24,148 nt of DNA, from IMG/VR virus record IMGVR_UViG_2671180842_000004. One strand, written 5' to 3'. The position numbers and the translations under genes are program-made. Below, piece after piece: positions 424 to 24,148 of the stretch. The notes below the pieces were generated by a model that ran no database searches, had not been told where the DNA came from, and saw only the letters and a program-made list of their open reading frames with translations. The stretch comes from an uncultured virus (IMG/VR IMGVR_UViG_2671180842_000004). Its lineage: Duplodnaviria > Heunggongvirae > Uroviricota > Caudoviricetes. The first letter of the stretch is position 1; the number at the start of each line of letters is the position of its first letter.

Positions 424-447
424 TTTTTATACCGCCTTTCTATTTTC

Positions 448-490: not shown

Positions 491-524
491 TTTAGAGCAT
501 CTTTCTGTAGAAAAAACTATTCCA

Positions 525-4858: not shown

Positions 4859-4875
4859 TACACATCTCCTTATCC

Positions 4876-5897: not shown

Positions 5898-5920
5898 TTC
5901 GCACCTCCATTTGGGCATAG

Positions 5921-5955
5921 AGAAAGCCCTCGCGGTTTTTCCACGAAGGCTCTCT
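5921..5955 (-). terminator. 15-bp RNA hairpin in the leader of the late operon (terminator/attenuator-like or stabilising)
   Basis: Minus strand AGAGAGCCTTCGTGG-AAAAA-CCGCGAGGGCTTTCT pairs fully if G-U is allowed; U-tract is weak. Confidence 0.5.
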
Positions 5956-5973
5956 ACATTTTTTCACAATACC

Positions 5974-6017
5974 ATTGTATAACCGATTGTGAGTAAAATC
6001 GTCCACGATATTACTCA
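5974..6017 (-). promoter_or_regulatory. Putative late promoter: TACAAT -10 plus 13-bp inverted repeat operator over the -35 region
   Basis: TGAGTAAAATCGT-CC-ACGATATTACTCA (5990-6017, one mismatch); TACAAT on the minus strand at 5979-5974; no consensus -35. Confidence 0.55.
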
Positions 6018-6476
6018 TTACTTTCCATAGAGTAGTAGTGCTAAATGCTGAAGTGCGCGATTCTTCTTGTTGTAAGCTGAAGAGCGTTCAATGTTAAAAC
6101 GGTCACAGATGTTGTACACTGCATCAATCTGCTTTTGTTCATCGTCCAAATAGAACTCCTTTAACACATACTGCTCATCCTCCGTTAAGGCATCCCATGC
6201 AGGTTGAAACCAGTCCATGTATTCCAGTGCTTGGCGATAGCGTTCTTTTAATACATCAATTTCATTAATGCAGGCAATGAGCCTTTTCTCTCCTGCTTTC
6301 GGATCATGGGTCGCTGGCATGCCATTTAGAACTGGAGATACAGGAGAACTCATTTCTTCGTTGAGGGTAGCAATGTCCTCATCAGTATGTTCTATGATGT
6401 ATTTCATGCTGCTGTAATCTTTTAAGGCATTGATTGCCGCTGCCCTTTTATCTAAATATTGCCAGACAATGTTCAT
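6018..6476 (-). CDS. Putative late transcriptional activator (RinA/ArpU-like, C-terminal sigma-region-4-like HTH)
   Basis: LTEDEQYVLKEFY...ICDRFNIERSSAYNKKNRAL HTH pattern; last gene before HNH-terS. Confidence 0.65.
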   Translation of the reverse strand: MNIVWQYLDKRAAAINALKDYSSMKYIIEHTDEDIATLNEEMSSPVSPVLNGMPATHDPKAGEKRLIACINEIDVLKERYRQALEYMDWFQPAWDALTEDEQYVLKEFYLDDEQKQIDAVYNICDRFNIERSSAYNKKNRALQHLALLLYGK

Positions 6477-6480
6477 CGTA

Positions 6481-7830: not shown

Positions 7831-8092
7831 GAAGTATCCCTCCAATCTGTTCTATGTGATCCAGGCAGAACACCAAAAAACCAAGTGCTTCTAACTGTCT
7901 TTTTCGCTTTTCCTGTAGAGGCCGTAAAGTTTTACCTGGTGCTTTTACCTCTACAAATGCAGCTTTTCTATTAGGTAACAAAATCAATCTATCTGGCATT
8001 CCATCAAAACCTGGTGATACAATTTTTAGTGCAATGCCGCCTATATCTTTTACTGCTTTTATCAGTTTTTGTTCTATCAATTTCTCTCTCAT
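7811..8092 (-). CDS. VRR-NUC domain nuclease
   Basis: E..IE...GMPDRLIL...FVEVKAPG...RPLQ PD-(D/E)XK pattern; 93 aa. Confidence 0.92.
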   Translation of the reverse strand: MREKLIEQKLIKAVKDIGGIALKIVSPGFDGMPDRLILLPNRKAAFVEVKAPGKTLRPLQEKRKRQLEALGFLVFCLDHIEQIGGILREIQAS

Positions 8093-8094
8093 AG

Positions 8095-8349
8095 TTCCTC
8101 CACGTTCCCTAAATCCAAAAAGTCTCTATACGCGCGTATATACGCGTCTGCAGGTAATTTCCTCTTTTTGTCTTTAGGATTACTTTTAATAATTATTTTT
8201 GGAACAATGGAACAGAAGTTATAAAGTAGCCTACTTTACAAAGGGCTGTCGCCTGTTCCAATGAGGTGTACCAAAAGACCGTTTTTGTTTCACCGGAACA
8301 GGGGAAATCTGTTCCTGAGAAAAAATTGTTCCATGTGTTCCAAACTAAA
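8095..8349. repeat. Repeat- and palindrome-rich intergenic region, candidate replication origin
   Basis: Seven exact GGAACA/TGTTCC copies (8201, 8209, 8254, 8295, 8310, 8327, 8336); overlapping palindromes TATACGCGCGTATA (8127-8140) and CGCGTATATACGCG (8133-8146); TAAAGTAG-C-CTACTTTA (8222-8238); AT-rich stretch about 8170-8200. Confidence 0.6.
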
Positions 8350-10695: not shown

Positions 10696-11111
10696 ATCTT
10701 CTGCACCTCCTCGCAGTTTTCGGTAAAATACCGAATAGGAATACGATGCTTCGATGCTTTATCTATTTCTGCTTGCATTCCTTTTGAGATGTAGCGACCA
10801 AATACCCACAACTCCTCGCACTTTCTAAGCCAAACCATTCCAAAGAATAGTCCTAGTTTTCTTTGTTCATGATCGCTATCATCTAGCACTTGTGGGTATA
10901 GCAGGTGAGGAGCAAAAGGAATAGTTCCTTGCTCCACTGCAAACGTCAGGTATTTTCTAGCTTTATTTAGATTTTTTTCTATGTCTCCAGCAAAAGGAGA
11001 ACAAATAAAAACGCAAGGTTTATAGCATTTCGCTTTTTCTTCACGCATGATATTTTCCATGGCTTCTGCTGCAGCCTCTTCTGGATAGCCTTCAGCGTTA
11101 TATTTATCCAT
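10692..11111 (-). CDS. DUF4406-like / nucleoside 2-deoxyribosyltransferase-fold phage protein
   Basis: VFICSPFAGD...PFAPHL...CEELWVFG..ISKGMQAEI pattern. Confidence 0.75.
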   Translation of the reverse strand: MDKYNAEGYPEEAAAEAMENIMREEKAKCYKPCVFICSPFAGDIEKNLNKARKYLTFAVEQGTIPFAPHLLYPQVLDDSDHEQRKLGLFFGMVWLRKCEELWVFGRYISKGMQAEIDKASKHRIPIRYFTENCEEVQKI

Positions 11112-11114
11112 AAG

Positions 11115-11906
11115 TTACATCTCCTCGAATTCGGACTCTTGTTCAATCAATGGTAAAATGCCATGATCCTTAAGAAGCTCATAAATGAATAAGCGTCCTT
11201 TCTGAGTCCAGTAAGTATGAACCTTTGAATGCATCGTCCCATCATTTCCAGAGTACGTATGGGTTTTGGTTGTCGTATATCCATGTTGGGCATACTTTTG
11301 ATATAGAAGCCAGATTTTCCCTTGACGGAACTGAACGCCCAGATTATGCAGATATTCATTGAACCAACGACCAGACTTTCCATAATCCTTGGCGATGGTT
11401 GTAATAGACACCGCATCCTTGCAGTTAAGTACCACATCGTAATAACTGGCTTTGGGTTTCATTTCTGCAATCTGCTGTTCTTGAATGCTAATGGTAGTTG
11501 TTAGCTCGGCATTTTTGGCTCTTTCGGCTTTAAGCTCCTGCAGTGCTTGAATCAAAAAGTCCGGATTAGCAAGCAACTCATCTGTAGCATAAAGTCCATG
11601 CCTTCTGATGGAAGGAAGAACTTCATGAGTTACCCAGCGCTTGAACTTTTTAGCTTCTGGCTTTCGAGAAACCAATATCACGCTATAAAGGCCACTTTCA
11701 TTGATAATAGATACTTCCTGTTTTCCTCCAGGGGTGTCGATAATATCGACTCCCTTTTCATCACTGTCCAATCGAGATGTAACATCACGACTGTTTCCAA
11801 TTTCTAGCACAGAACAGATATCCTTAAGTACCCACCAAGGATTACCATCCTTTAAAATTGTTCTGACATTGTTGCCCTCGTAGTTGAAAATCGTTAATTT
11901 GTTCAT
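11115..11906 (-). CDS. Phage antirepressor (BRO-N plus ANT/KilAC domain)
   Basis: PWWVLKDIC...INESGLYSVIL.SRKPEAKKFKRWVTHEVLPSIRRHG; C-terminal PKASYYD...YWTQKGRLFI; start moved to ATG 11906 with SD GGAGG. Confidence 0.93.
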   Translation of the reverse strand: MNKLTIFNYEGNNVRTILKDGNPWWVLKDICSVLEIGNSRDVTSRLDSDEKGVDIIDTPGGKQEVSIINESGLYSVILVSRKPEAKKFKRWVTHEVLPSIRRHGLYATDELLANPDFLIQALQELKAERAKNAELTTTISIQEQQIAEMKPKASYYDVVLNCKDAVSITTIAKDYGKSGRWFNEYLHNLGVQFRQGKIWLLYQKYAQHGYTTTKTHTYSGNDGTMHSKVHTYWTQKGRLFIYELLKDHGILPLIEQESEFEEM

Positions 11907-11946
11907 ATCGAACCTCCAGCATATAGTTGTAGAGCGATAAAACATG

Positions 11947-11988
11947 CCCTCAGCTATAAGCAAAAAAAGAGGAGGCTTCGAACCCCCT
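11947..11988 (-). promoter_or_regulatory. Promoter-like motif copy 1 (AGGGGGTTCGAA-N15-GCTTAT-N3-TGAGGG)
   Basis: 31 of 42 positions identical, ungapped, to 16166-16207; intergenic, upstream of the antirepressor gene. Confidence 0.65.
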
Positions 11989-11992
11989 CAAA

Positions 11993-13927
11993 TTAATCTT
12001 TTTTATAAAAATAGCATTCAAATCCATCAGCACGAAGTAGAAGCCCATGCGCCCAAGGCGGTACCTGACCCATAAGAACACAGATGTCTTGTACGCATAT
12101 TACTAAAGGAACCTCTAAAACTACCTCGTCATGGACATGCATGACAATATTTAATCCTGCTTCATCCAGTTTTCGCATGGAATGGCAAAGAAGATCTCTT
12201 GAAATGGCCTGCACGATGTTCTCAACAAATTTCGGACCATAGCTTTCAATACGCTCCCACTTCTTTGTGGTACCAACGCCTTCATACGTCACTGCTTCAC
12301 TGCCGAATCTGTTAATCCCCATCCTTGGTTTGACATAGGTAAGCTGTCTCCCGGATGGTAACCATATCAACAGCATTCCACTGCGATATTCAAAACGGAT
12401 ACGATGAGTTTCTGTTCTACATCTTTCTTTTACAGCTTTTTTAACTGCTCTATCGACATCCCACCAAAGCCTAACAATGTTTGGATTCGCATTTCGCCAT
12501 GCATAGACCAAAGGTTTTAATTCTTCTTCGGTAAGACCCATATCAAGTGCTCCCATTGCTTTTAACGCACCAACTGATCCACCATAACCCAAGGCCAACT
12601 CCGCAATTTTTCCTTTTTGTCTGAGTAGACTACCTTTTGTGACTTCTTCCAAGGGGACCCTAAACATCTGGGAAGCGGATGCTTCGTAAATCTTGCCATG
12701 GGTAGCGAATACCTCATTTCTCCATGTCTCGCCTGCGAGCCAGGCAATCACTCTAGCTTCAATTGCACTAAAATCAGCAACAATAAACTTATATCCTTTC
12801 TTTGGAACAAAGGCGGTACGGATTAACTCGGACAAAACCCCTGGAACAGAATCGTACAATAATTCCAAGGCCTCAAAATGACCACCTCTAACTAACCTTC
12901 TCGCCTGCTCCAGATCCGGCAAATGGTTCTGCGGAAGATTTTGAACTTGTATAAGCCTCCCTGCAAATCTGCCGGTTCGATTGGCACCATAAAACTGCAA
13001 TAGACCACGTGCTCTTCCATCAGCACATACTGCATTTTCCATAGCGGTGTATTTCTTTACACTGGACTTTGCTAGCAGTTGCCTCAGTTCCAGCACTTCA
13101 CTCAGGTGATCTGGAGCTTCCTTTAATAGTGCCTTAACTGACGCCTTATCAAGACTATCCGTTTCCAGACCACTTTCCGATAGCCAGGTTTTCATCTGGG
13201 TCACTGAGTTTGGATTTTCAAGATTAGTAAGCTCTTTTAGTCGGCTTGTGAACTCTTCTCGGGTTTGTTCATCACACTGGATAGCCTTCCTTACCAAGTC
13301 TAAATCCAATTGAATACCTCGATCATTAATCTGCTGGTCTAGAATATAGTTCTGCCACTCCTCTTCTGGCATAGGGAACTTCTGAAGCTTTGCCTGTATG
13401 GAAAGTTCAGCTTCAACATCTCGAAGGTTATATGCTTTGAAACTCTCCCACTTTTCTAAAGCATGCTCCGGTAGATTGCGAGTTCGGCCTCCATTAGACT
13501 GAGTCGCTTTGCATGGAACAGAGAAATATCGGATGAGTTCCTTACCCTCAGTCAGCTTTTTCTTATCAGCTCCTGTTACAAGAGCCGCTCCTTCTAGCGA
13601 TAGAGGAAGTCCTAGGTAGGCAGACCACACCATCGTACAACGCCATGAAGCAGGCTCAAGCCAGACACCAAAATGACGAGACAAGCAGATTCGTTCAAAT
13701 TGAGCATTAAATGCCCACTTTATAATCTGGCTATCTAGAACTGCATTCTGGATTTCTTGTGGGATCTTTTCGCCACATGCTAAATCAACTACCTGTACAG
13801 GACCACCATCCACACTGTAGCCCAAAAGTAGGATTTGAAAATCCGGTGCTTCAGCGTAACGATAGACCCCGCTTTTGGCGATGTCTACGCTACTATATGT
13901 TTCTATATCTATGCTGAGGGTTCTCAT
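11993..13927 (-). CDS. Phage family A DNA polymerase with 3'-5' exonuclease domain
   Basis: Exo DIETYS, FNAQFER, YNLRDVE; motif A ADFSAIEARV, motif B RQKGKIAELALGYG, motif C HVHDE. Confidence 0.95.
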   Translation of the reverse strand: MRTLSIDIETYSSVDIAKSGVYRYAEAPDFQILLLGYSVDGGPVQVVDLACGEKIPQEIQNAVLDSQIIKWAFNAQFERICLSRHFGVWLEPASWRCTMVWSAYLGLPLSLEGAALVTGADKKKLTEGKELIRYFSVPCKATQSNGGRTRNLPEHALEKWESFKAYNLRDVEAELSIQAKLQKFPMPEEEWQNYILDQQINDRGIQLDLDLVRKAIQCDEQTREEFTSRLKELTNLENPNSVTQMKTWLSESGLETDSLDKASVKALLKEAPDHLSEVLELRQLLAKSSVKKYTAMENAVCADGRARGLLQFYGANRTGRFAGRLIQVQNLPQNHLPDLEQARRLVRGGHFEALELLYDSVPGVLSELIRTAFVPKKGYKFIVADFSAIEARVIAWLAGETWRNEVFATHGKIYEASASQMFRVPLEEVTKGSLLRQKGKIAELALGYGGSVGALKAMGALDMGLTEEELKPLVYAWRNANPNIVRLWWDVDRAVKKAVKERCRTETHRIRFEYRSGMLLIWLPSGRQLTYVKPRMGINRFGSEAVTYEGVGTTKKWERIESYGPKFVENIVQAISRDLLCHSMRKLDEAGLNIVMHVHDEVVLEVPLVICVQDICVLMGQVPPWAHGLLLRADGFECYFYKKD

Positions 13928-14484
13928 GATAAAAAGTCGTCATCCACGTCAGTGGCAAAGTCATCAGCTGCATTGGTTCTACCGCCTAAAGGCTCACCAT
14001 CGCGGATTTTTTGAATGTTTCCAAGGCCACACGCTATACCCTTATTTCCATTGGAGTTAAAGGCGTAGAAGTTGATACTCACTCTTGCATAGACACCGGA
14101 GTACACTTCTGAACGATCAAGGATTGGATTGACGTTTCTGTCTACAATTTGTGGAGCAGTATTGCTGTTGGCATTGATAAAATAGCTGTTGGCATAAGCC
14201 TCATCATCCGGACGATCAATGTCGCCATCACGCAGAGGGAGCTTGAGAACTGCTTTATTGGGAATCTTCCCACCGAATTTACCTTTACCTTCCTCTATGG
14301 CGGCATTCACTGCTTCGTTGATAGCGCTTAAGGTTTTAGTATCACTCTTAGGGATAATCAGGCTCACACTGTATTTTTCAGTACCGCCATTGATAGATTT
14401 AGGTTCCCAGACATTGGCATAAGAGAGTCGTACAACTCCTGTGATTACTTTCGTTGGGTTCGTTCTTTTTACTGTTTTTGACAT
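13924..14484 (-). CDS. DUF2815 family ssDNA-binding protein (T7 gp2.5-like)
   Basis: RLSYANVWEP...KYSVSLIIPK...LPLRDGD...YSGVYAR...GLGNIQKIRDGEPLGG, acidic tail DDDFLS; start at ATG 14484 with SD GGAGG. Confidence 0.9.
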   Translation of the reverse strand: MSKTVKRTNPTKVITGVVRLSYANVWEPKSINGGTEKYSVSLIIPKSDTKTLSAINEAVNAAIEEGKGKFGGKIPNKAVLKLPLRDGDIDRPDDEAYANSYFINANSNTAPQIVDRNVNPILDRSEVYSGVYARVSINFYAFNSNGNKGIACGLGNIQKIRDGEPLGGRTNAADDFATDVDDDFLS

Positions 14485-14488
14485 AGTA

Positions 14489-15616
14489 TTATACCTCCAT
14501 AAAATCATTTTTTGCTGATGATGTGTTCATTTCAGGACGCTTGTCTGAAACTGGTACTAGCGTCGGTTTGCCTGGTGGCTTCATAATTAGTCCACCAAGG
14601 ACTTCATTAAATTTTGTCTTGCCCATCAATTTCTCCATTTCAGTAATAGTGATGAGACTTTGCTTGTATATGTCGCGATAACCTGCATTCTTTGCCGCTT
14701 CTGCGACCGCTTCTTCATCTTTGTATTTACGGTTGGAACGGCCTTCGACTACTTTAAAGCCGGGCCACTTCTTTCCATGATTAACTGCTGCATCTGTCGC
14801 ATAGGCTATAATCTCATTTGTCCATCTGGTGAGATCACCGATAGAAGATAGAATCTCAGCAATTTCTTCATCTGATAAAAGTGGCGGTAGCGCAAACTCA
14901 AATGTAGCCAGTTTCATTTTCGCTTCTGCTCTTGCTCGACATTTCACTGCAGCCCGACAAAATTGACACCACTCTCCGGGGCAATAGTTTCCGTCACCAG
15001 CGAAGGCCAGTTCAGCTTTAGGTTTCAAAACTTCTTCAGCCCATCGATACAAGCTTTCTTTTGAGACTGTGGACGTGCTGATATTTTCACGACGAGGTTG
15101 ATAAATTGTCATTGAAACCATCTCGATGTCATAAATACCATCAAAGAGATCCAGTGCACCAAGGGCATATAGTTTCATTTGAGGATTGTCCTCTGCGCTG
15201 ACTAAGACACCCTGACCATACTTAAAATCAATAATGTGAAGAGTTCCATCAGCTATAATTACACAATCCCCGGTCCCAAAGCCATCAGGAACATACTTTG
15301 AAAAATCAAGCCGCTGTTCTATCAAGATTAAGGGGTCACTACATGTCTGCTTGGCTTGCTCAATCACTTCAAGCACATACTCTACATATCCATCGGTGTA
15401 ATTATCCATCTCATCTGAGTCATATGGAGAAACCGGCTTTTTTGATCTCATCTTAAGCGCTTTGCGGAGCTTGTGCTCACTTAACGCATGGGCAGCTGTG
15501 CCTTCAGCCGCAGCTTCACCGCTGTTGTCGTCAAACTCCAGCTCCAACCTCGCTGATGGTGTGCAGTTTAACCACCTATGGGCTCCAGATGCAGAGAGAA
15601 TTGCATGTTTACTCAT
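14489..15616 (-). CDS. DUF2800 family PD-(D/E)XK (Cas4-like) nuclease
   Basis: HAILSAS.AHRWLNC, EGTAAH, FGTGD...IIDFKYG, QMKLYALG, C-terminal WCQFC...C cluster. Confidence 0.9.
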   Translation of the reverse strand: MSKHAILSASGAHRWLNCTPSARLELEFDDNSGEAAAEGTAAHALSEHKLRKALKMRSKKPVSPYDSDEMDNYTDGYVEYVLEVIEQAKQTCSDPLILIEQRLDFSKYVPDGFGTGDCVIIADGTLHIIDFKYGQGVLVSAEDNPQMKLYALGALDLFDGIYDIEMVSMTIYQPRRENISTSTVSKESLYRWAEEVLKPKAELAFAGDGNYCPGEWCQFCRAAVKCRARAEAKMKLATFEFALPPLLSDEEIAEILSSIGDLTRWTNEIIAYATDAAVNHGKKWPGFKVVEGRSNRKYKDEEAVAEAAKNAGYRDIYKQSLITITEMEKLMGKTKFNEVLGGLIMKPPGKPTLVPVSDKRPEMNTSSAKNDFMEV

Positions 15617-15930
15617 TTCAATCCCTCCGCATCGGCAAGAAGTGCAGCATACTTGCTTGGATCAATCTGGCTGAGTTTTGATGCACCATACTTTTCTAGA
15701 AGTGCTCTTACTTCAGCTGTAAATCCGTCATGGCTTTTTTCCGCAAGTACCGCCCTTACTTCTTCTAAGGTGAGCTGCTTTTCTTCAGATTGTTTTTCAG
15801 GCTTTGGTTGCTCTGGCTTTGTAATCTCATGAGGCCCATTACTTGCTATTGCATCAGCTACAGCCTGAACACTATCTGCCAGAGCTCTAAGATCTGACAC
15901 CACATCGAGAAGGAGCTTAATCTTACTCAT
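15613..15930 (-). CDS. Conserved phage hypothetical protein
   Basis: MSKIKLLLDVV...LTLEEVRAVLAEKS..G.TAEVRALLEKYGASKLS; SD GGAGGTG before ATG 15930; overlaps both neighbours. Confidence 0.8.
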   Translation of the reverse strand: MSKIKLLLDVVSDLRALADSVQAVADAIASNGPHEITKPEQPKPEKQSEEKQLTLEEVRAVLAEKSHDGFTAEVRALLEKYGASKLSQIDPSKYAALLADAEGLK

Positions 15931-16132
15931 GACCCACACCTCCTTCCTTGATTTCCTTTATTTCTACCGTCTCAACTGAGTCACCGGGAGTAATTACAAG
16001 CAGACTGACTTTCTTTCCAAATAGGAAATCAAGCATTCTCGCTCGGATTGTCTTCCGACTGCTTTGAATTACTGAGCTTCTTTCGCCACCGGGCCTTGCC
16101 ACATTGATTGTGACTTTGTGTTTAAGGTTCAT
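15923..16132 (-). CDS. Small phage hypothetical protein (69 aa)
   Basis: SD AAAGGAG before ATG; stop overlaps the next start; first gene after promoter motif copy 2. Confidence 0.8.
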   Translation of the reverse strand: MNLKHKVTINVARPGGERSSVIQSSRKTIRARMLDFLFGKKVSLLVITPGDSVETVEIKEIKEGGVGHE

Positions 16133-16165
16133 ATTCCATCTCCTTTCTGGGGGCGATTTATCTGC

Positions 16166-16207
16166 CCCTCACCGATAAGCGAAAAAGAGAGTTCTTTCGA
16201 ACCCCCT
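16166..16207 (-). promoter_or_regulatory. Promoter-like motif copy 2
   Basis: Matches 11947-11988; lies just downstream of the sigma-like gene and upstream of the replication operon; followed by a GGGGC...GCCCC hairpin (about 16150-16168). Confidence 0.65.
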
Positions 16208-16249
16208 TTTCAGAAAAGATTTTTTTATAAAGGGTTCTTGCGAACCCAA

Positions 16250-16744
16250 TTAGGATAGAATTTTTCTAAGTCTTTCTTGAAGCTTCTTAAGGCGACCACG
16301 AATAGCCGCTTCTGTAACACCTTCTTCTGTTGCAATATCAGTGTTGGATCGTTTTTCAAGGTATACTTTTTTGAAGAGTTCTTTTTGTTGTGGTAAAAGA
16401 CACTCCATTGCCTTGGTTAACTTGTCCAGCATATCTTGATGTTCAGCCTCATCTTCTGCTTGTATAATTAGCTGTTCTGGATTCGCAGTATCATCTGCAA
16501 GATACTTATTGCGGTCATTTGCCGCTTCCTCTTCGCCATCATGATAAGCATCCAGATGTGTTGTCACTCGATAATCGTACCGGCGCTGCTCGTCCACTTC
16601 GTCATCATCCATAGTATGTAAAAGCTCGATATCAGCTTCGGTGACTCCATCTTCACCTGGGGTAATCACAATCTTTGTTCCTTCAGCAGTGTAATAAATG
16701 TAGTTAGTTCTCTTCTTTTTACTTGTTTTGTACGCTCTTTTCAT
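16250..16744 (-). CDS. Sigma-70 region 4-like transcription factor (phage sigma-like protein)
   Basis: C-terminal LLPQQKELFKKVYLEKRSNTDIATEEGVTEAAIRGRLKKL HTH; start moved to ATG 16744 (MKRAYK) with SD AAAGGAG; the upstream extension in the ORF track runs through a structured leader. Confidence 0.85.
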   Translation of the reverse strand: MKRAYKTSKKKRTNYIYYTAEGTKIVITPGEDGVTEADIELLHTMDDDEVDEQRRYDYRVTTHLDAYHDGEEEAANDRNKYLADDTANPEQLIIQAEDEAEHQDMLDKLTKAMECLLPQQKELFKKVYLEKRSNTDIATEEGVTEAAIRGRLKKLQERLRKILS

Positions 16745-16820
16745 AATTTGACTCCTTTGGTTTTCAAAATTTGGCTTTGAAAAATCCGCAGGAGCCGGTT
16801 TTCTTTTATCCGCAGAGCAG

Positions 16821-16869
16821 AAAAAAAGACGGGCAGGAAACACTTTCAAAGTGTTCATCCTGTCCGTCT
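16821..16869 (-). terminator. Intrinsic terminator in the leader of the sigma-like gene
   Basis: Minus strand AGACGGACAGGA-TG-AACACTTTGAAAGTGTT-TCCTGCCCGTC followed by a T7 run. Confidence 0.75.
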
Positions 16870-16913
16870 AGCGGCTCTGCGGATTATTTCGTATAATTGC
16901 TTGATCACAATTC

Positions 16914-17063
16914 TTAAATTGCCTCAGAGTTAATAACTTTCATGGTGCCATCTTCCATGAACTGAATAACTGTCTTAAACCCTCTCTGAACAATTTCAAC
17001 TATTTTATTTGAAGCATCTGCTCGACAAACTGTCTTACCATTACCATTCTTAATCACTTCCAT
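16914..17063 (-). CDS. Small hypothetical protein (49 aa), first gene of the leftward transcript
   Basis: Below the ORF-track cutoff. SD GGAGGTGA then ATG: MEVIKNGNGKTVCRADASNKIVEIVQRGFKTVIQFMEDGTMKVINSEAI*. Confidence 0.8.
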   Translation of the reverse strand: MEVIKNGNGKTVCRADASNKIVEIVQRGFKTVIQFMEDGTMKVINSEAI

Positions 17064-17126
17064 GCCCTCACCTCCGTTTCACTTAATAAAGATAATTTGT
17101 TTTTATTCGCGCAGTATATTGATGCG

Positions 17127-17155
17127 TTCGCAAATATAAAATTGAAATTTGCGAA
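17127..17155. promoter_or_regulatory. Inverted-repeat operator overlapping the rightward -35
   Basis: TTCGCAAAT-N11-ATTTGCGAA; further TTCGC half-sites at 17106 and in GCGAATTCGC near 17329. Confidence 0.6.
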
Positions 17156-17170
17156 AATACGTGATATAAT
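17142..17170 (+). promoter_or_regulatory. Sigma-A promoter for the defence operon
   Basis: TTGAAA (17142-17147), 17-nt spacer, TG-n-TATAAT (17165-17170). Confidence 0.85.
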
Positions 17171-17188
17171 TGTAAAAAGTTGTGTACA

Positions 17189-17294
17189 TTACAGATGGAC
17201 TGTACAGTGTCAACTTCCTTTGAAACAATTGTAGTAAAAATAAAAAACCATCTCTAACAGATGGGTACAGATGGATACAACCGGATACAAAGCA
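17189..17294 (+). repeat. 10-bp period degenerate direct repeats in the 5' leader of the defence operon
   Basis: TAACAGATGG GTACAGATGG ATACAACCGG ATACAAAGCA in tandem (17255-17294) plus TTACAGATGG at 17189-17198. Confidence 0.7.
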
Positions 17295-17312
17295 TGAAGG
17301 AGGTAATTTCTA

Positions 17313-18467
17313 TTGATATTGACATTTAGCGAATTCGCACAAATCCTGATGCCCATATTAGGTTCTGGGGCAAATACTGCAGAATTTACTAAAGAGTTGT
17401 TCTCTAATATCACTACTTTTCCAGATGATATGGATGGAGATTACAACCCTATTCATGACGTTACAAGTTCAGCTCTAAAAAGCTATTTTAATGGCACTAG
17501 GCCTATTTCATCTATGGCGAAAAAAATTAATAAATACATAGATATAGATAAGTTTGAGAACTATATTAATTCGGCAAATGAAGACGCTCAAAGCTCCTTA
17601 GGTAGTAAACTTTCGGAGTATTTTCCAGACATTAATGCGTTCAATACGCCTGAAAAGTGCGCTAAAATTTTCAAAGATATTCTTATTGAAAGTGCAACAT
17701 CAGGAAAAAGCAAAAAAGCCACTTCTACATCAAGTAAAAGTGGCCAATTAATAAGTGTTGACGTGCTAAAAAACGAGTTTGGTCTACGTCTAATTTTAGA
17801 GTCAAATGGTATTTGCCCCAACGATAATTGCTATCAACCTCTGTATGTTACGAGCAACAATGGTAAGACAGCAGCTAATTACGAAATTGCTCAAATCGAT
17901 CCAAAATTGAAACCTGATAGCTATGAAAACCTTATTGCTTTGTGTCCAAAATGTAAAAATAAGTATTTGTTATCTCCAAGTCAAGATGATATTAAACGCA
18001 TGGCAGATATTAAAAGACATCTTATGCTAGAAGCTAATGCTATTGAAGCTTTGGCTGATTCAAAGATAGAAGAGGGCGTAAATAGAGTTTTAAGAAAAAT
18101 AAGCACCACTCCATTCACAGAATTGATTCCTTTAAACTACGATCCAGTTGAAGTAAAAAGAAAGATTAAGAGAGACAATGTCCCTCTTTTTATCAAAATT
18201 CAAAGCAGTGTTAATATCTACTATCTTTATGTTGAGAATTTATTTCAACAGTTGAGTAAAGAAGGTCAATTACGGTTTGAGCCATTCTCCATGCAAGTGA
18301 AATTAAATTACTGGAATCTACGTGATCAGGGTTTATCACAATCTGATATCTATTATAAATTAGTTGATTGGCTTGCTAAAAACACAAATGAAAGTAAAGA
18401 ACCGTGCGAAGTGATTATTTCATATTTCGTACAGAAGTGCGAGGTGTTCGATGTTATTGCCGAATAA
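17313..18467 (+). CDS. lmuA: ABC-three-component/Lamassu-like effector: HTH-like N-terminal domain, degenerate HNH Zn domain, C-terminal CTD
   Basis: TTG start 8 nt after AAGGAGGT; CPNDNC...YEIAQI...ENLIALCPKC HNH scaffold; C-terminal CEVIISYFVQKCEVF as in ABC-3C CTDs; followed by overlapping small gene and ABC ATPase. Confidence 0.78.
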   Translation: MILTFSEFAQILMPILGSGANTAEFTKELFSNITTFPDDMDGDYNPIHDVTSSALKSYFNGTRPISSMAKKINKYIDIDKFENYINSANEDAQSSLGSKLSEYFPDINAFNTPEKCAKIFKDILIESATSGKSKKATSTSSKSGQLISVDVLKNEFGLRLILESNGICPNDNCYQPLYVTSNNGKTAANYEIAQIDPKLKPDSYENLIALCPKCKNKYLLSPSQDDIKRMADIKRHLMLEANAIEALADSKIEEGVNRVLRKISTTPFTELIPLNYDPVEVKRKIKRDNVPLFIKIQSSVNIYYLYVENLFQQLSKEGQLRFEPFSMQVKLNYWNLRDQGLSQSDIYYKLVDWLAKNTNESKEPCEVIISYFVQKCEVFDVIAE

Positions 18468-18678
18468 AATTTTCACATATAACGAAAGTATATTGTCTAA
18501 ATTCCCTTTTGTCCTTAAAGAACTGTCAATTTCTCCACAATCAGTAATAACTCTTTACATGAAGATGCGGCCTCTGATATCTGATGTGGGCGAATATATA
18601 GAAATCCTCGATTCTCTTTATGCATTACAGAAGATTGAATACGACGAAGATCGAGAGGTGTTGATATATGTTAGTTGA
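18451..18678 (+). CDS. lmuC: ABC-three-component middle component (LmuC-like), 75 aa
   Basis: MLLPNK...ESIL...LDSLYALQKI pattern; overlaps both neighbours; SD GAGGTG. Confidence 0.78.
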   Translation: MLLPNKIFTYNESILSKFPFVLKELSISPQSVITLYMKMRPLISDVGEYIEILDSLYALQKIEYDEDREVLIYVS

Positions 18679-20320
18679 AATACATTGTGATGAATTTATG
18701 TCCTATGGAAAGCCCCGAAAACCTATCATTTTCCATGAAGGACTTAATACTGTGCTCGGCGGCCAATCAGCAGATAATTCTATTGGTAAATCTACGTTCC
18801 TTCTAATCATAGATTATGTTTTTGGAGGCGATACTTACAAGTATTCAGATGCTGCACACAAACTGAAAAACCACTTTATTAAATTTGCTTTTAAGTTTGA
18901 TAATCAACACTATTATTTTTGTAGAGATATTGTTAACAGTGAGGAGGTTTCTGTTTGCGATAAAAACTATAATATTCAAAAAACTATACCACTTCAGGAG
19001 TTTAAAGATTTTCTATTTTCAAAATACAATATTAATCTTCCTCATGTTACTTTTAGAGATGTTGTCGGGCGCTATTTCAGAATTTACGGTAAAGATAATC
19101 ATTCTGAGAAAAAGCCTCTCCACTCAACCAGCTCAGAACCAGCTGAAAAGGCAATCACTGCTTTAGAAAAACTTTTTAATGTTTTTGATAGAATTCAAGA
19201 ATATAAAACGGTTGAGTCAATGAAGAAAGATAAGTTTGCAACATTTAAAAAGGCAAGGAAATTTGAGCTTTTGCCCTTCTCAATTACAACAAAACGTCAG
19301 TATAAAGAAAATGAAAAGGAAATTGCAAGATTACGGGAAGCTTTAGTTAATCTCACAGAACAAATAGACAAAGATTTATCACATGATGATCTAGTCCATG
19401 CGGAAGAAGCGTCAGCCATAAAAGCTGAAATAACCTCTATTAAGAGGCAGAGAAGCAGACTATTATCTCAACTTAAAGTTGTAACAAAAAACTTGAGTGG
19501 CGAACGCGTTATATCTGAAAGCGATATAGTTGAATTAGCGCAATTCTTTCCAGAGGCGGATATAAGAAAAATTAAAGATATTAACAGATTTCATGGTAAG
19601 ATGCAGCAAATATTAAGCGACGAAATGACTGAAGAGGCGGAAAGATTGCGGGTATTAATTGAGTCTACTGAAATAGAAATATCTAGACTTGAAGATGATT
19701 TACGGAAACTTGGTATTCCTGCGAATCTTTCAAAACGTTTTTTAGAAAATTATTCAGAAATAGAACGAAAAATCAATATGCTGGAAGCACAAAATAGTGC
19801 CTATATTAATTCAACTAATCTAAAGGAGGAGGTAAAAATAGCCTCTGAAAATCTTAGAATAGCCCAAGAAAAAGAACTGCGTTTTATAGAGAGCGAAATT
19901 AATGAGCAGATGGTCCGTTTCAATGATTTTATTTATGATGAAACCCGTAAGGCTCCTGTTATTGATTTAGATAATGGAAAGAGATATGAATTTTACACTC
20001 CTGACGATACCGGTACGGGGACTTCATTTAAAAGCCTTATTATTTTTGACTTGAGCATTCTTAAATTAACTCCACTACCTGCTATTGCTCACGATTCTCT
20101 AATTTTTAAAAACATAGGTGATGCTCCGATTGACAAGATAATGGAGTTGTACATGCAAAGTAAAAAACAGATTTTCATCTCTCTTGATAAAGATGGTGCT
20201 TACTCTGAAAAAACAAGGTCTATACTTAACAAAACAGCCGTATTGCATCTTAATGAAGGCGGCGATGAATTATTTGGTCGCTCTTGGAACAAAAAAGATG
20301 CGACCCAAGGAGGCTTATAA
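18668..20320 (+). CDS. lmuB: SMC/Rad50-like coiled-coil ABC ATPase (DUF2326-type, LmuB-like)
   Basis: N-terminal Walker A GLNTVLG...NSIGKST, long central coiled coil, C-terminal DTGTGTS signature-like segment and AIAHDS Walker B-like segment. Confidence 0.82.
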   Translation: MLVEIHCDEFMSYGKPRKPIIFHEGLNTVLGGQSADNSIGKSTFLLIIDYVFGGDTYKYSDAAHKLKNHFIKFAFKFDNQHYYFCRDIVNSEEVSVCDKNYNIQKTIPLQEFKDFLFSKYNINLPHVTFRDVVGRYFRIYGKDNHSEKKPLHSTSSEPAEKAITALEKLFNVFDRIQEYKTVESMKKDKFATFKKARKFELLPFSITTKRQYKENEKEIARLREALVNLTEQIDKDLSHDDLVHAEEASAIKAEITSIKRQRSRLLSQLKVVTKNLSGERVISESDIVELAQFFPEADIRKIKDINRFHGKMQQILSDEMTEEAERLRVLIESTEIEISRLEDDLRKLGIPANLSKRFLENYSEIERKINMLEAQNSAYINSTNLKEEVKIASENLRIAQEKELRFIESEINEQMVRFNDFIYDETRKAPVIDLDNGKRYEFYTPDDTGTGTSFKSLIIFDLSILKLTPLPAIAHDSLIFKNIGDAPIDKIMELYMQSKKQIFISLDKDGAYSEKTRSILNKTAVLHLNEGGDELFGRSWNKKDATQGGL

Positions 20321-20532
20321 TGTATATAAGTTATAACAAACTATGGAAGCTGCTAATTGACAAAAATATGAATAAACAAGATCTAAAAAAACTTAGCGGT
20401 GTTAGTTCTGCCTCTATTGCAAAACTAGGTAAAGGCGAAAACATCACTACAGATGTATTAGTCAAAATCTGTAAAGCACTTGATTGTGATATAACAGATA
20501 TTATGGAGTTAATTCACGAAGAGAAGAAATGA
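20320..20532 (+). CDS. Xre/Cro-C1 family HTH regulator (70 aa)
   Basis: MYISYNKLWKLLIDKNMNKQDL...SSASIAKLGKGENITTDVLVKICKALDCDITDIME; ATG overlaps the upstream TAA (TAATG); SD AGGAGG. Confidence 0.92.
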   Translation: MYISYNKLWKLLIDKNMNKQDLKKLSGVSSASIAKLGKGENITTDVLVKICKALDCDITDIMELIHEEKK

Positions 20533-20573
20533 ACATTCAACAACAAAGAAAATATGGAAAGGAAGCGTTTTAT

Positions 20574-22400
20574 ATGGATAACCAAACCTATAATTCAATA
20601 GTAAACTTTATTTGGGGAATAGCCGACGATTGTCTGCGAGACGTATATGTACGAGGTAAATATAGAGATGTAATCCTGCCTATGACAGTAATCCGCAGAT
20701 TAGATGCTGTATTAGAGGAAACTAAACCTGCTGTTCTTGAAATGAAAAAGAAACTAGACGAGGCAGGTATCACCAATCAGACTGCTGCACTATGCAATAC
20801 AGCTGGACAGTCATTTTGCAACAGTTCACCTTTTTGCTTGCGTGATTTAACCTCTAGAGCAAAGAAACAAACTTTAAAGGCAGATTTTATAGCGTATTTG
20901 GATGGTTTCTCTCCTAATGTTCAGGAGATATTAGATAAATTCAAATTCCGCAACCAAATAGACACTATGATCGATGCAGATATACTTGGTGCTGTTATCG
21001 AAAAATTTGTATCACCTACAATCAATTTAAGTCCCAACCCGGTTTATAAAGATGATGAAAAAAAGGAAATTCGTCTACCAGGTCTTGATAACCATACCAT
21101 GGGGGTAATATTTGAAGAACTTATTCGCCGCTTTAATGAAGAAAACAATGAAGAGGCCGGAGAACACTTTACCCCTCGTGATGTTGTCGAATTAATGGCC
21201 GATCTTATTTTTGTACCAGTAGCGGATAAAATTAAGGATGCAACTTATTCATGCTATGATGGGGCTTGCGGTACAGGTGGTATGCTTACCGTAGCCCAAG
21301 ACCGCCTGATGGAGCTTGCTGAAAAAGCTGGCAAGAAAGTATCTATTCATCTTTTTGGCCAGGAAATAAATCCAGAAACGTATGCTATAGCTAAGTCTGA
21401 TTTACTATTACAAGGCCAAGGAGATCAGGCGGACCATATTGGGTTTGGTTCCACCCTCTCTAACGACCAATTCCCTACCTACCAGTTCGACTTCATGCTA
21501 AGTAATCCACCGTATGGTAAATCATGGAAAGTTGATGCAGATAAGCTCGGTGGCAAGAAAGATATTATGGACAGTCGTTTTGTGACCAACTTTGCTGAAG
21601 ATCCTAATTTCAGTATGATTCCAAGAACAAGTGACGGACAGTTACTTTTCCTACTCAACAATGTTGCAAAAATGAAGAAAACTACCGAGTTAGGTAGCCG
21701 TATCGCAGAAGTGCATAATGGTTCCTCCTTATTTACAGGTGATGCCGGACAAGGTGAAAGTAATGCCCGACGCTATATGATAGAGAACGACCTTGTAGAA
21801 GCGATTATTGCGCTACCAGAAAATATGTTCTATAACACAGGAATTGGCACTTTTATTTGGATTCTTTCTAACAATAAAGCTGAACACAGAAAGGGTAAGA
21901 TTCAACTTATAGATGCTACTTCTTTAAAGTCGCCTCTTCGTAAAAACCTTGGGAAAAAGAACTGTGAATTCACTTCTGAGATTAGGCGCCAGATTTTGGA
22001 TTTATATATGGCTTTTGAGGAAAATGAGTATAGCAAAATTTTTGATAACAACGAGTTCGGTTATTGGAAAGTAACTGTTCTTCGCCCTGCATATAACGAA
22101 GATGGCACTATTCAGAGAGATAAAAAAGGAAAACCTTTTGTCAATAAAGAGCTAACAGATACAGAACAAATCCCTTTTACCTATGAAGGTGGCATCGAAG
22201 CATTCTTTGAAAAAGAAGTAAAGCCCTTTGCTCCCGATGCATGGATTGACGAAAAGCAGACAAAAATCGGTTATGAAATTAGTTTTACAAAATATTTCTA
22301 TAAACCGATTCAGCTAAGAACACTAGAAGAAATAACAGCAGACATTCGTTCACTCGAAGAAGAAACAGACGGATTACTTGCTGAGATTATAGGGGGTTGA
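20574..22400 (+). CDS. hsdM: Type I restriction-modification methyltransferase subunit
   Basis: FIWGIADD..., GEHFTPRDVV, YDGACGTGGML, GQEIN, SNPPYG, FYNTGIGT; start at ATG 20574 (SD AAAGGAAG), alternative 20529. Confidence 0.96.
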   Translation: MDNQTYNSIVNFIWGIADDCLRDVYVRGKYRDVILPMTVIRRLDAVLEETKPAVLEMKKKLDEAGITNQTAALCNTAGQSFCNSSPFCLRDLTSRAKKQTLKADFIAYLDGFSPNVQEILDKFKFRNQIDTMIDADILGAVIEKFVSPTINLSPNPVYKDDEKKEIRLPGLDNHTMGVIFEELIRRFNEENNEEAGEHFTPRDVVELMADLIFVPVADKIKDATYSCYDGACGTGGMLTVAQDRLMELAEKAGKKVSIHLFGQEINPETYAIAKSDLLLQGQGDQADHIGFGSTLSNDQFPTYQFDFMLSNPPYGKSWKVDADKLGGKKDIMDSRFVTNFAEDPNFSMIPRTSDGQLLFLLNNVAKMKKTTELGSRIAEVHNGSSLFTGDAGQGESNARRYMIENDLVEAIIALPENMFYNTGIGTFIWILSNNKAEHRKGKIQLIDATSLKSPLRKNLGKKNCEFTSEIRRQILDLYMAFEENEYSKIFDNNEFGYWKVTVLRPAYNEDGTIQRDKKGKPFVNKELTDTEQIPFTYEGGIEAFFEKEVKPFAPDAWIDEKQTKIGYEISFTKYFYKPIQLRTLEEITADIRSLEEETDGLLAEIIGG

Positions 22401-22404
22401 GAGA

Positions 22405-23796
22405 ATGTTGAAACCCTATGAAAAATATCAAAATACAGAATACGATTGGCTAGGGTTGATACCACTACATTGGCAATGGCTATATTTATCGCAAACATGT
22501 ACGGAGAAGAAGCAAATTAAAAACACAGGAAATATTGAAAAAAAGGTTCTTTCATTAAGCTATGGTAAAATTGTACCTCGTAAAAATGTTGATCTTGGTT
22601 TAGCCCCGAAAGACTATAGTAGTTACCAAATTGTAGATAAGAATGATATTATTCTGAGGCTTACGGATTTACAAAATGATAAAAAAAGTTTAAGGACTGG
22701 GCTTGTAAAGGAACGTGGGATAATCACATCTGCGTATACTTGCCTTAAGCCTTTTCAAAATGCTGCATATTTACAATATCTCCTTCATTCCTATGACACC
22801 CAAAAAGTGTTTTACGGAATGGGAGGCGGTGTGAGACAGTCAATAGGATATAAAGATATTAGAAATATTCGCATTCCTTTTCCTCCCCGCGAGGAACAAG
22901 ACCAAATCGTTCGCTTTCTCGATTGGAAGCTTGCTAAAATCAATAAACTAATTCGAGCAAAGAAAAAGCAGATTGCATTATTTAATGAACAAAGACAAGC
23001 TATTATAAATAACGTAGTTACAAAGGGGCTAGATTCCCACGCCAAGTTGAAGGAAAGTGGAATTTCCGGACTAGGGAGTATTCCATCTACGTGGAGTGTT
23101 AAACCCTTAAAATATTGGGCTAAAAGCAATTTACAATCACTTAACTCGTCAACTGAAGCAGATTTTGAATTTGATTATTTAGATATTAGTTCTGTCGGTT
23201 TTGGCTATGTTAAACAAGAACCCGTACATTATAGATTTGATGAAGCTCCTTCACGAGCAAGAAGAGTTGTAAAATATGGAGATACCATTATTTCAACAGT
23301 TAGAACTTATCTTCGTTCTATGTGTTTTATTGATCATGATATAGAGCATTGTATTGTTTCCACTGGCTTTTCTGTTCTATCACCTATTAAAGGAACAGTA
23401 TTACCAGAGATATTATCTTATGCATTGAGTTCAGATTACTTTGTCAATGAGGTAATAAAAAATTCAATAGGTGTTTCTTATCCTGCAATAAATAATAAAA
23501 AGTTATTAAGCTTAAAGGTTGCTCTCCCCTCAACAATAGAAGAACAACTACAGCTTTATAATGAAATTAAAACAAAAACAACTCTATTAGATAAAGGAAT
23601 TTTATCAATCAAACAGCAAGTTACTACTTTAAAGGAATTTCGTACCCGCCTTATTTCCGATGTGGTAACGGGAAAAGTCGATGTACGTGATATCGAAATA
23701 CCTGAATATGAAGCCGACTCTGATGAAACTATCGACGATGAAATTGATGATAATCTCGTCTTAGATGAAGAAGACGGAGAAATGGAGGTGGAATAA
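22405..23796 (+). CDS. hsdS: Type I restriction-modification specificity subunit
   Basis: Two TRDs each followed by conserved helices (PPREEQDQIVRFLD...; EEQ...LISDVVTGKVDVR); WLG.IP..W repeats; acidic tail. Confidence 0.95.
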   Translation: MLKPYEKYQNTEYDWLGLIPLHWQWLYLSQTCTEKKQIKNTGNIEKKVLSLSYGKIVPRKNVDLGLAPKDYSSYQIVDKNDIILRLTDLQNDKKSLRTGLVKERGIITSAYTCLKPFQNAAYLQYLLHSYDTQKVFYGMGGGVRQSIGYKDIRNIRIPFPPREEQDQIVRFLDWKLAKINKLIRAKKKQIALFNEQRQAIINNVVTKGLDSHAKLKESGISGLGSIPSTWSVKPLKYWAKSNLQSLNSSTEADFEFDYLDISSVGFGYVKQEPVHYRFDEAPSRARRVVKYGDTIISTVRTYLRSMCFIDHDIEHCIVSTGFSVLSPIKGTVLPEILSYALSSDYFVNEVIKNSIGVSYPAINNKKLLSLKVALPSTIEEQLQLYNEIKTKTTLLDKGILSIKQQVTTLKEFRTRLISDVVTGKVDVRDIEIPEYEADSDETIDDEIDDNLVLDEEDGEMEVE

Positions 23797-23797
23797 C

Positions 23798-24148
23798 ATG
23801 AGCGACGATTTTCATATGGAAATATCTATACCAGCAGATAACGATGGATATATACTTTTGCAATGCCCCAACTGTGGTACTTTCTTCAAAGCTACTCCTT
23901 CTGATATTGAGGACGATGGCGTACTTGAACTTTTTTGTCCAAGTTGTGGCCTTGTAGGAGAAGACTACATTACAGAGGATGTATTAGAGTTGGCTATGGC
24001 AATGGCGCAAAACAAGGCGATGGACATGATCCACGAAGAATTTAAAAAATGGAGCGTCAATTTAGGAAAGGACCTGTTACTTTTAAGGCTGGAAAACGTC
24101 CCAAGCATGAGCCTGAAAATCCAATTCGTTCTGGCATTGAAGCTCTAG
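23798..24148 (+). pseudogene. Zn-ribbon (CxxC...CxxC) protein, apparently frameshifted at an A6 run; true frame probably continues off the right edge
   Basis: SD GGAGGTGG, ATG 23798; CPNCG and CPSCG; after TTTAAAAAA (24041-24049) the -1 frame reads MERQFRKGPVTFKAGKRPKHEPENPIRSGIEAL and stays open to the window end. Confidence 0.55.

Follow-up and report, generated by a model that had tools for sequence, protein, structure and literature searches.

A candidate phage-borne short Lamassu system with a predicted nuclease-dead effector encoded opposite the early operon

The 24,148-nucleotide stretch of viral DNA recorded as IMGVR_UViG_2671180842_000004 (an uncultured member of the Caudoviricetes; this whole stretch is called the window below) carries a three-gene Lamassu/ABC-3C cassette that is transcribed away from the early operon of the phage. 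The explanation that we favor, with a probability of about 0.6, is that the cassette is phage cargo: a short Lamassu (ABC-3C) defense system with a non-nucleolytic effector, located in the lysogeny operon of a Heliusvirales-like temperate phage. The cassette is real and intact, and it is apparently expressed. What is unusual in the window is the combination of a silenced nuclease, an unexplained N-terminal module that is common to STAND NTPases and other sensors, and a conserved slot on the lysogeny side of the phage genome.

The cassette has the genes of a short Lamassu system

A first-pass annotation of the window, made from the letters alone, had assigned the three genes to a Lamassu/ABC-3C system, and this assignment is upheld by matches to CTD11, MC7 and DUF2326 in Pfam and by the PADLOC calls LmuA, LmuB and PDC-M68A/B. 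The effector is also, as had been stated, the first gene of an operon that diverges from the phage early operon. The order of the genes (effector, small middle component, coiled-coil ABC ATPase) is that of short (type II) Lamassus, and the three open reading frames (ORFs) overlap one another on the plus strand, divergent from the minus-strand early genes. Residues 164–380 of the effector match PDC-M68A in PADLOC, and the ATPase matches both LmuB (E 1.7e-11) and PDC-M68B (E 7.6e-14). A Walker A motif, ADNSIGKST, is present in the ATPase. In addition, the C-terminal domain (CTD) of the effector is similar in fold to that of LmuA (9hqx_A, Z 5.9; 9nxx_A, Z 5.5).

The HNH module of the effector is predicted to be catalytically dead

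Homology of the central part of the effector to HNH nucleases is supported by both profile and structure comparisons. A profile built from 33 family members matches the McrA HNH domain (6ghc, E 1.8e-5), and in this alignment the His-His pair of McrA falls on columns that do not hold His. In an AlphaFold2 (AF2) model of the effector (pLDDT 85.7), residues 148–249 align with Cap5 HNH domains (Z 9.3, root-mean-square deviation 3.1, 91 residues), and McrA aligns with the same model at Z 7.3. The Pfam HNH family reaches no more than E 0.027 on the effector, which is under the cut-off.

The general-base His is replaced by Q194 and the metal His by K215, and Asn206 is present. All motifs quoted in the first-pass annotation are found in the translation: CPNDNC (C168, C173), YEIAQI (Q194), CPKCK (C211, C214, K215) and SSALKSYFNGTRPIS (residues 52–66). 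In an alignment of 33 sequences, the four Cys and N206 never vary. The position of Q194 is taken by Q, I, V, K, R, F or L, and that of K215 by S, Y, C, A, H, G, F or K.

A word-indexed search gave 142 homologues of the effector. Relatives were located at 80 genomic loci, and the effectors of 78 of these were aligned (L055 and L072, with unusable ORFs, were left out). The aligned effectors form three groups. The 23 short forms are ∼256 amino acids long, have at most 39 residues before the first Cys, and retain the general-base His ("AH") in 23/23 and the final His in 23/23. The 36 long forms, which resemble the effector of the window, have the N-terminal domain, with the general-base His in 0/36 and the final His in 4/36. 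The remaining 19 effectors, ∼412–433 amino acids in length, have a different N-terminal region of 180–200 residues, carry R, H, Q or P in the general-base column, and have Glu as the final residue in 19/19.

By these counts, the loss of His is strictly tied to the gain of an N-terminal extension. The proposals that the HNH is dead and that His loss coincides with both the extension and the location at a phage junction therefore hold at the level of sequence: the general-base His is missing from every long-form relative, and early genes lie beside none of the 23 short forms. Judged from these alignments, nuclease loss is a lineage-wide trait and is not specific to the effector of the window. 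We infer that the dead HNH has been kept as a zinc-stabilized module with a structural or DNA-contacting function. The HNH protein that the phage encodes separately (5538–5918) is canonical, as had been noted (PF01844, E 2e-16).

An acidic N-terminal domain occupies the effector slot

When the N-terminal domain of the effector (N-dom) was folded alone from a 44-sequence alignment, AF2 predicted seven helices with high confidence (pLDDT 90.9, pTM 0.83). No fold match was found in the PDB: the best VIA-align score is Z 4.7, with none reaching 5, and the best Foldseek row (globins) has E 0.17. Helix-turn-helix (HTH) proteins align with the N-dom model at Z 2.7–3.1 only, among channels, acyl carrier proteins and others. 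The fold-search rows for the whole effector model gave no match for residues 1–130, and the ESM Atlas gave no usable match for residues 1–135. No Pfam or NCBIfam HTH model matches the effector N terminus at E ≤ 0.1, and no Pfam or NCBIfam family covers N-dom. In the literature searched, supplements not included, we found no description of this domain, nor of a His-less HNH Lamassu effector.

Conservation in N-dom is confined to hydrophobic positions and G61. The domain has an isoelectric point (pI) of 4.55 and a net charge of −7, and its 44 homologues have a median pI of 4.73, with 2/44 above pI 8. The HTH_26 proteins encoded at the same loci have a median pI of 9.1. The first-pass annotation had described the N terminus as HTH-like, with residues 52–66 resembling an Xre helix. 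Neither idea is supported: the domain matches no HTH family and no PDB fold and is acidic, and the resemblance of SSALKSYFNGTRPIS is one of a short string only, with no backing from family, fold or charge.

N-dom also proved not to be new, since it is already the N-terminal module of the catalogued PADLOC LmuA model PDLC03857 and of many STAND NTPases. PDLC03857 matches residues 3–144 of the effector with E 4e-25. A word-indexed search with residues 1–150 gave 2 proteins only, and an exhaustive HMMER search gave 415 representative proteins at E ≤ 1e-3. N-dom starts at residue 1–22 in 146 of the 150 matches listed (of 415). Pfam annotation covered the 66 carriers longer than 270 residues. Among these, CTD11 is present in 27, several of which are ∼280–290 amino acids long and lack the HNH-like insert. 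CTD6 is found in 6, NACHT in 9 (4 with SNaCT14) and NB-ARC in 2; WD40/beta-propeller, TPR or LRR repeats alone occur in one carrier each, and 19 carriers have no family. The protein P0239 (N-dom plus CTD6) matches PDLC03857 over its full length (E 2e-86). For the NACHT-type carrier P0191, no relative was found in viral contigs. These architectures indicate that N-dom sits in the effector slot of conflict systems.

A pattern of conservation limited to hydrophobic residues and one Gly, in a domain present on many sensor types, could also arise if N-dom were an adaptor that, like effector-associated or death-like domains, brings in an enzyme encoded by another gene; the true effector would then be located elsewhere. 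PADLOC models of HamA1, a nuclease family, share the N-dom stretch (PDLC00151, E 1e-8), which agrees with such a role. However, tblastn with the effector finds one place in each matching phage record and one match in G001, the nearest genome, and no second N-dom gene is present in the phage contexts inspected. Moreover, systems such as that of P0239 consist of N-dom and a CTD only, and N-dom matches no effector-associated or death-like family in Pfam. We therefore regard an adaptor function as improbable.

Between the N-terminal 200 residues of the third effector group and N-dom, hhalign detected no relationship (probability 0.5%). This group of CTD11 effectors (L047, L051, L053, L060, L068, L073–L080, L082–L084, L086, L089 and L090) has an N-terminal domain of ∼182 residues that corresponds to the N terminus of the PADLOC HamA1 model PDLC00164 (E 2e-35). 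Its Cys4 module is more degenerate still, an HTH_26 gene precedes the effector, and the genes are nearly always found beside a phage early operon.

The cassette is linked to phage early genes in many genera

At 33/80 loci, at least two early-gene homologues lie on the opposite strand directly upstream of the effector; the count is 28/58 among loci with at least 3 kb of upstream sequence. This linkage is seen for 15/36 long forms, 18/21 members of the third group and 0/23 short HNH forms. The synteny with the early operon holds at protein identities down to 26–60%, and the records span Clostridium, Neobacillus, Gardnerella, Salipaludibacillus, Thermoanaerobacter and others. Among loci that lack early genes, a rumA-like gene is upstream in L019, L021 and L025, and a serine recombinase gene is upstream in L023 and L027.

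Phage records show the same arrangement. In Streptococcus phage phiStag1, a minus-strand sigma-like gene faces genes for a CTD11 protein, a 74-residue protein, a DUF2326 protein and an XRE regulator. In the IMG/VR contig L099, a homologue of the 49-residue early-gene product of the window faces a LmuA composed of N-dom and CTD6, a 153-residue protein, a 597-residue ATPase and HTH_26. Related records label the phage lineage Ca. Heliusvirales; the portion consulted of a paper on this lineage (PMC11283538) has no passage on repressors, lysogeny, integrase or Lamassu.

In the nearest genome, G001, the effector is 100% identical. The G001 prophage begins with large serine recombinase genes and continues through lysis, structural, packaging and replication genes up to the early operon. 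These are followed by the cassette, the HTH gene, type I restriction–modification (RM) genes, the Zn-ribbon gene, a gene for a 261-residue protein, hsdR (990 residues) and a DUF4357 gene. Beyond the DUF4357 gene are a rumA-like U5-methyltransferase gene and then ordinary chromosomal genes, and there is no integrase on the cassette side of this prophage. At the far prophage end (G001 L005 17288–19978), an intact large serine recombinase gene (523 residues) is followed by a second that is split into ORFs of 137 and 233 residues. When positions 2541–24148 of the window are compared with G001:C2, the two are 100% identical from about position 14000 up to the end of the window and 77–94% identical leftwards, and there is no match for 1–2540. 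This mosaic relationship points to recombination within the phage replication module.

These data bear on two further possibilities, that the cassette is a remnant in decay or without function, or that it is a chromosomal island merely adjoining the prophage. The G+C content divides the window: bases 1–16858, with the minus-strand phage genes, have about 0.41–0.47, whereas the sequence from about 17000, where all genes are on the plus strand, has 0.33–0.36. The latter range equals that of the flanking chromosome in G001 and is below the 0.40–0.45 of the phage, and the catalytic His have been lost, as might be expected of a remnant or an island. In contrast, four ORFs are intact and overlapping, the effector family has 142 members in which Cys, Asn and CTD residues are invariant, early-operon synteny extends across many genera and into phage records, and RNA contigs cover the cassette. 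Thus, a remnant or an island is highly improbable.

A conserved HTH_26 gene accompanies the cassette

The first-pass annotation had stressed that the first gene divergent from the early operon is not a CI. This reading is not supported: a conserved Cro/CI-type HTH_26 gene is present in the same operon as its fourth gene, and in the sister group such a gene is the first divergent gene. The likely start is the ATG at 20320 (the listed ORF begins at a TTG at 20284), which overlaps the ATPase stop codon, and at the other end the HTH_26 stop codon and the hsdM ATG overlap. Translation of the HTH_26 gene is coupled to that of the ATPase gene. The protein matches HTH_26 (PF13443, E 3e-19), HTH_3 (E 1.4e-7) and the PDB regulator 3tyr_A (E 3e-19). 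It is also VanU-like (E 7e-23), under the curated equivalog cut-off. It consists of the HTH domain alone and lacks the C-terminal oligomerization or S24 autocleavage domain of the lambda CI type.

An HTH_26 gene follows the ATPase gene in 27/36 long-form loci (of the 9 without it, 3 stop at a contig end), precedes the effector gene as the first divergent gene in 19/19 evaluable third-group loci, and is absent from all 23 short-form loci. A Pfam scan of 12 minus-strand proteins of the window found no other HTH of the Xre/CI type, and no repressor was named among the eight larger minus-strand proteins, which were scanned with PHROGs only. The HTH_26 gene plausibly supplies what the first-pass annotation had named as evidence against its own reading, a conventional regulator able to explain repression.

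The junction contains a promoter, a palindrome and a leader repeat array

The promoter predicted for the cassette is the best site in 16700–20700, with 11/12 consensus positions and an extended −10 element. Its −35 element is overlapped by a perfect palindrome, TTCGCAAAT-N11-ATTTGCGAA (17127–17155), which also overlaps the −35 element of a weaker minus-strand promoter candidate. Both palindrome arms are kept in L015, where the effector is 54% and the HTH protein 82% identical. Related TGCGAAC/GTTCGCA half-sites are found ahead of the promoter in L099 and four phage records, with one copy each in phi1605 and TPDSL_ph1, and the −10 element TGATATAAT recurs in phage records. The half-site hexamer is enriched upstream of long-form effectors (mean 0.6 per 300 bp, compared with a background of 0.13); the corresponding values are 0.18 for short forms and 0 for the third group. 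The HTH_26 protein is the obvious candidate for the factor that binds the palindrome and controls both the operon and the early promoter opposite.

Immediately before the ribosome-binding site (RBS) of the first operon gene are three or four direct repeats with ∼10-nucleotide spacing. This leader array keeps its position, and its core varies: GGTACA/GGATACA in the window, GGTAGGC, GGACT or GGAGTAA elsewhere, and TGCGAACA in L099. Such arrays are found at 5900–6000 of L092, just before position 5001 in L093, L094 and L095, and at 5940–5990 of L099. A comparable array, with ACTCCGC repeats, occurs in the third effector group, where it is upstream of the promoter. The leader array may be the specificity-determining binding array of the phage switch. 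Rfam detected nothing in 16800–17500 except a chance row for a long noncoding RNA (E 0.88).

Six metatranscriptome runs contain 0.75–0.91 of the sampled words of 16200–20600, and four of these, one per study, were examined. Long RNA contigs without loose ends begin at 17195, 17188, 17159 and 17203 in the four runs, and these starts hint at agreement with the promoter. The contigs continue through the cassette into the RM genes; that of run X15 spans 17195–23438, and that of run X18 extends for 12,007 nucleotides from 17159 past the window end. The early genes gave only short RNA contigs of low depth in three runs, and parts of 15000–17134 were uncovered in some, which is not evidence of silence. 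All four RNA runs have one extra A in the A-run at 17236–17241 relative to the window, which reflects either variation between strains or a homopolymer error in the window sequence.

On the other side of the junction, the 49-residue ORF (16914–17063) belongs to no PHROGs or Pfam family, yet it is conserved beside the module in many loci and in L099. It is a candidate for a small Cro-like or anti-defense factor.

N-dom and HTH_26 bracket different sensors

Three more phage records carry, in the position divergent from the early genes, an N-dom protein, a different NTPase and then an HTH_26 gene of 67–72 codons. In Terrisporobacter phage TPDSL_ph1 (source: culture supernatant) and Erysipelothrix phage phi1605, a 278-residue N-dom protein is combined with the RecD-like helicase PDC-S53. 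Phage NatCom_9287 has a 187-residue protein, a 216-residue protein and the AAA_13 ABC ATPase PDC-S06. The HTH_26 protein of the window is 62–76% identical to those that end the equivalent module in four phages and L099, and the N-doms of the bracketed phage proteins are only 28–33% identical to that of the window.

This pattern supports the alternative that a defense sensor has been rewired to the phage switch. The released effector would then act on transcription, for example if the acidic N-dom titrates the basic HTH_26 repressor, and the outcome would be RecA-independent induction or autoregulation in place of killing. Every phage-linked form has a dead nuclease. N-dom and HTH_26 bracket five different sensor modules in one and the same phage location: the CTD11/MC7/DUF2326 set, a CTD6 Lamassu, the PDC-S53 helicase (two phages) and the PDC-S06 ATPase, with HTH_26 much better conserved than N-dom. 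The two partners have opposite charges (pI 4.6 for N-dom and 9.1 for HTH_26), and the scans of the minus-strand proteins gave no other repressor. An extension of this idea is that N-dom and HTH_26 form a functional pair that serves different DNA sensors (two Lamassu types, a RecD-like helicase and an AAA_13 ABC ATPase), such that on encountering foreign or aberrant DNA the oligomerized N-dom captures the repressor and flips the phage switch. If this were true, a defense-type sensor would decide between lysogeny and escape instead of killing the cell.

Several observations argue in the other direction. N-dom is also found at the start of NACHT, NB-ARC and other proteins, in the place normally taken by an effector, and it has no HTH fold or family match. 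The transcriptional output proposed in the first-pass annotation is not supported. Because the phage examples were retrieved with the effector as query, sampling accounts for part of the pairing, which does not provide an unbiased estimate. Furthermore, other phages of the lineage have no such operon (Javan630 and NatCom_38182, whose early genes directly adjoin the lysis genes) or carry a metalloprotease module instead (further out in NatCom_991). We consider a rewired sensor unlikely, and a dedicated pairing of N-dom with HTH_26 slightly more doubtful still.

Proposed mode of action and its weak points

In solved Lamassu complexes, as described in the sections consulted of two reports (bioRxiv 10.1101/2025.06.23.660979; PMC12663957), an inactive LmuA monomer is held on a LmuB/LmuC scaffold, DNA ends are sensed, and the released LmuA tetramerizes through its CTD; the N-terminal part of LmuA also contacts DNA in the sensing state. 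The same cycle is proposed for the cassette of the window because of its homology to these complexes. By analogy, the ATPase/MC7 scaffold would hold the effector monomer by its CTD, the DNA ends of a replicating invader would release it, and CTD-driven oligomerization would cluster the N-terminal parts. The output would not be DNA cleavage; the clustered N-dom may act as a non-enzymatic binder or sequestrator of a target, and abortive-infection-type protection of lysogens would result. The DNA-binding regulator would be the HTH_26 protein and not the effector. It would bind the palindrome, set operon expression and probably also act on the facing early promoter.

The defense-cargo explanation has to be weighed against a number of observations that do not favor it. 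The similarity of the effector CTD to LmuA, at Z 5.5–5.9, is of a size that for helical domains can reflect a common arrangement. The ATPase has no sequence match in the PDB (phmmer), and its Walker B motif, as read from the sequence, lacks the Glu, with IAHD followed by S and not E. Walker B motifs are diversified in short Lamassus according to the part consulted of PMC12663957. An N-terminal enzyme domain with intact catalytic residues would be expected of a short Lamassu, and what is found here is an HNH with Q194 and K215. The non-enzymatic role of N-dom is argued solely from its absence of conserved polar residues. At the junction, the half-site occurs in 10/25 long-form upstream regions only, and run X15 also has a 16x contig of the early genes (15000–16162). 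More generally, RNA contigs do not constitute proof of transcription, of a start site or of a single transcript. Finally, a simple cargo function does not account for the strict pairing of N-dom with HTH_26 across several types of sensor.

Comparison with known systems

Among the closest known systems is the HNH-type short Lamassu, PADLOC candidate PDC-M68, in which a ∼256-residue effector (HNH plus CTD11) is encoded with a middle component and an ABC ATPase. It shares CTD11 and the gene order with the cassette of the window and has a related middle component and DUF2326 ATPase. HNH is listed among the effectors of short Lamassus in the part consulted of PMC12663957. In contrast to the window, the PDC-M68 short forms have both catalytic His (23/23), no N-terminal extension, no linked HTH_26 and no early genes upstream (0/23).

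Vibrio cholerae DdmABC and Salmonella LmuACB (PDB 9hqx, 9nxx) likewise consist of an effector, a small protein and an SMC-like ATPase, and their effectors have a similar C-terminal helical domain (Z 5.9, 5.5). The logic of sequestration, DNA-end sensing and oligomerization is presumably shared. However, these systems use a Cap4 nuclease, CTD7 and MC3, whereas the window has a dead nuclease, CTD11 and MC7, and an ATPase with no PDB sequence match. The PADLOC LmuA type PDLC03857 (N-dom plus CTD6; P0239, L099) has the same N-dom, and L099 also shares the 49-residue early-gene neighbor and the trailing HTH_26 (75% identical). Unlike the effector of the window, this type has no HNH-like insert and has CTD6 in place of CTD11, and its middle component (153 residues) and ATPase (597 residues) are longer.

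In lambda, the defense genes rexA and rexB are expressed together with the repressor gene cI from the lysogenic promoter, divergent from the early lytic operon. This arrangement parallels the operon layout of the window, but the proteins are unrelated, the repressor-type gene is last in the window (first in the sister group), and its product has the HTH domain only.

Layout of the locus and neighboring genes

The coordinates of the features are given in Table 1. The minus-strand phage genes encode the sigma-region-4 protein, an exonuclease, a Gp2.5-like annealing protein, PolA, Ant, a primase-helicase and an SNF2 helicase, as well as VRR-NUC, the canonical HNH, the small terminase subunit, S-adenosylmethionine synthetase and methyltransferases.

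Table 1. Positions of the cassette, its parts and its neighbors in the window
Feature	Position	Strand	Description
Sigma-70-region-4 protein gene	16250–16858	−	Phage early operon
49-residue ORF	16914–17063	−	First gene of phage early operon
Palindrome	17127–17155		Candidate operator between/over divergent promoters
Predicted cassette operon promoter	17142–17170	+	Sigma-70 type; TTGAAA-17-TG-n-TATAAT
Leader repeat array	17190–17290	+	TACAGATGG / GGTACA / GGATACA at ∼10-nucleotide spacing; RBS AAGGAGG follows at 17297–17303
Effector gene	17313–18467	+	384 residues; first gene of cassette
Effector residues 1–131, N-dom	17313–17705	+	Acidic all-alpha N-terminal domain, uncharacterized
Effector residues 148–222, degenerate HNH	17754–17978	+	Cys4 zinc module; Asn206 present; both catalytic His absent
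Effector residues 245–379, CTD11	18045–18449	+	Docking domain of ABC-3C effectors; PF20277, E 5e-35 (Pfam)
Middle component MC7 (LmuC equivalent)	18451–18678	+	75 residues; PF20292, E 6e-21; overlaps genes on both sides
Coiled-coil ABC ATPase, LmuB-like, DUF2326	18668–20320	+	550 residues; Pfam E 1e-17
HTH_26 regulator, Cro/CI-type	20320–20532	+	70 residues; PF13443, E 3e-19
Type I RM genes hsdM, hsdS, then Zn-ribbon PDC-M14A gene	20529–24148	+	Zn-ribbon gene cut at window end

The S-adenosylmethionine synthetase gene is complete (3683–4858) and lies between the methyltransferase genes and the small terminase gene. Its presence fits the methionine-metabolism genes noted for Ca. Heliusvirales in the part consulted of PMC11283538.

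Downstream from the cassette, the Zn-ribbon gene (23765–24148; PADLOC candidate PDC-M14A, E 3.5e-35) and a gene for a 261-residue protein with no family are embedded between hsdS and hsdR (G001 L004 3847–5113), and together they may be an embedded defense candidate. Among near-identical relatives, hsdS (22405–23796) is the sole cassette-side gene that is strongly divergent, with 38% identity in L013, and the RNA contig of run X18 has replacement sequence at 22419–22894 and 23024–23641 of this gene. This variation looks like swapping of target-recognition domains in a phage-carried type I RM system.

Implications

Lamassu effectors are usually seen as cell-destroying enzymes. In the present case, an entire phage-borne lineage has inactivated its nuclease and depends on N-dom. 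This domain also heads NACHT and NB-ARC NTPases and the partners of candidate defense ATPases, and therefore its action would explain several systems at once. The location of the cassette raises the question of how a prophage stops a sensor of DNA ends from firing on its own replication. In these abundant Heliusvirales-like gut phages, the lysogeny side offers a conserved slot with a promoter, an operator, a leader repeat array and a small repressor-type gene, and this slot can be used to find further defense cargo carried by phages.

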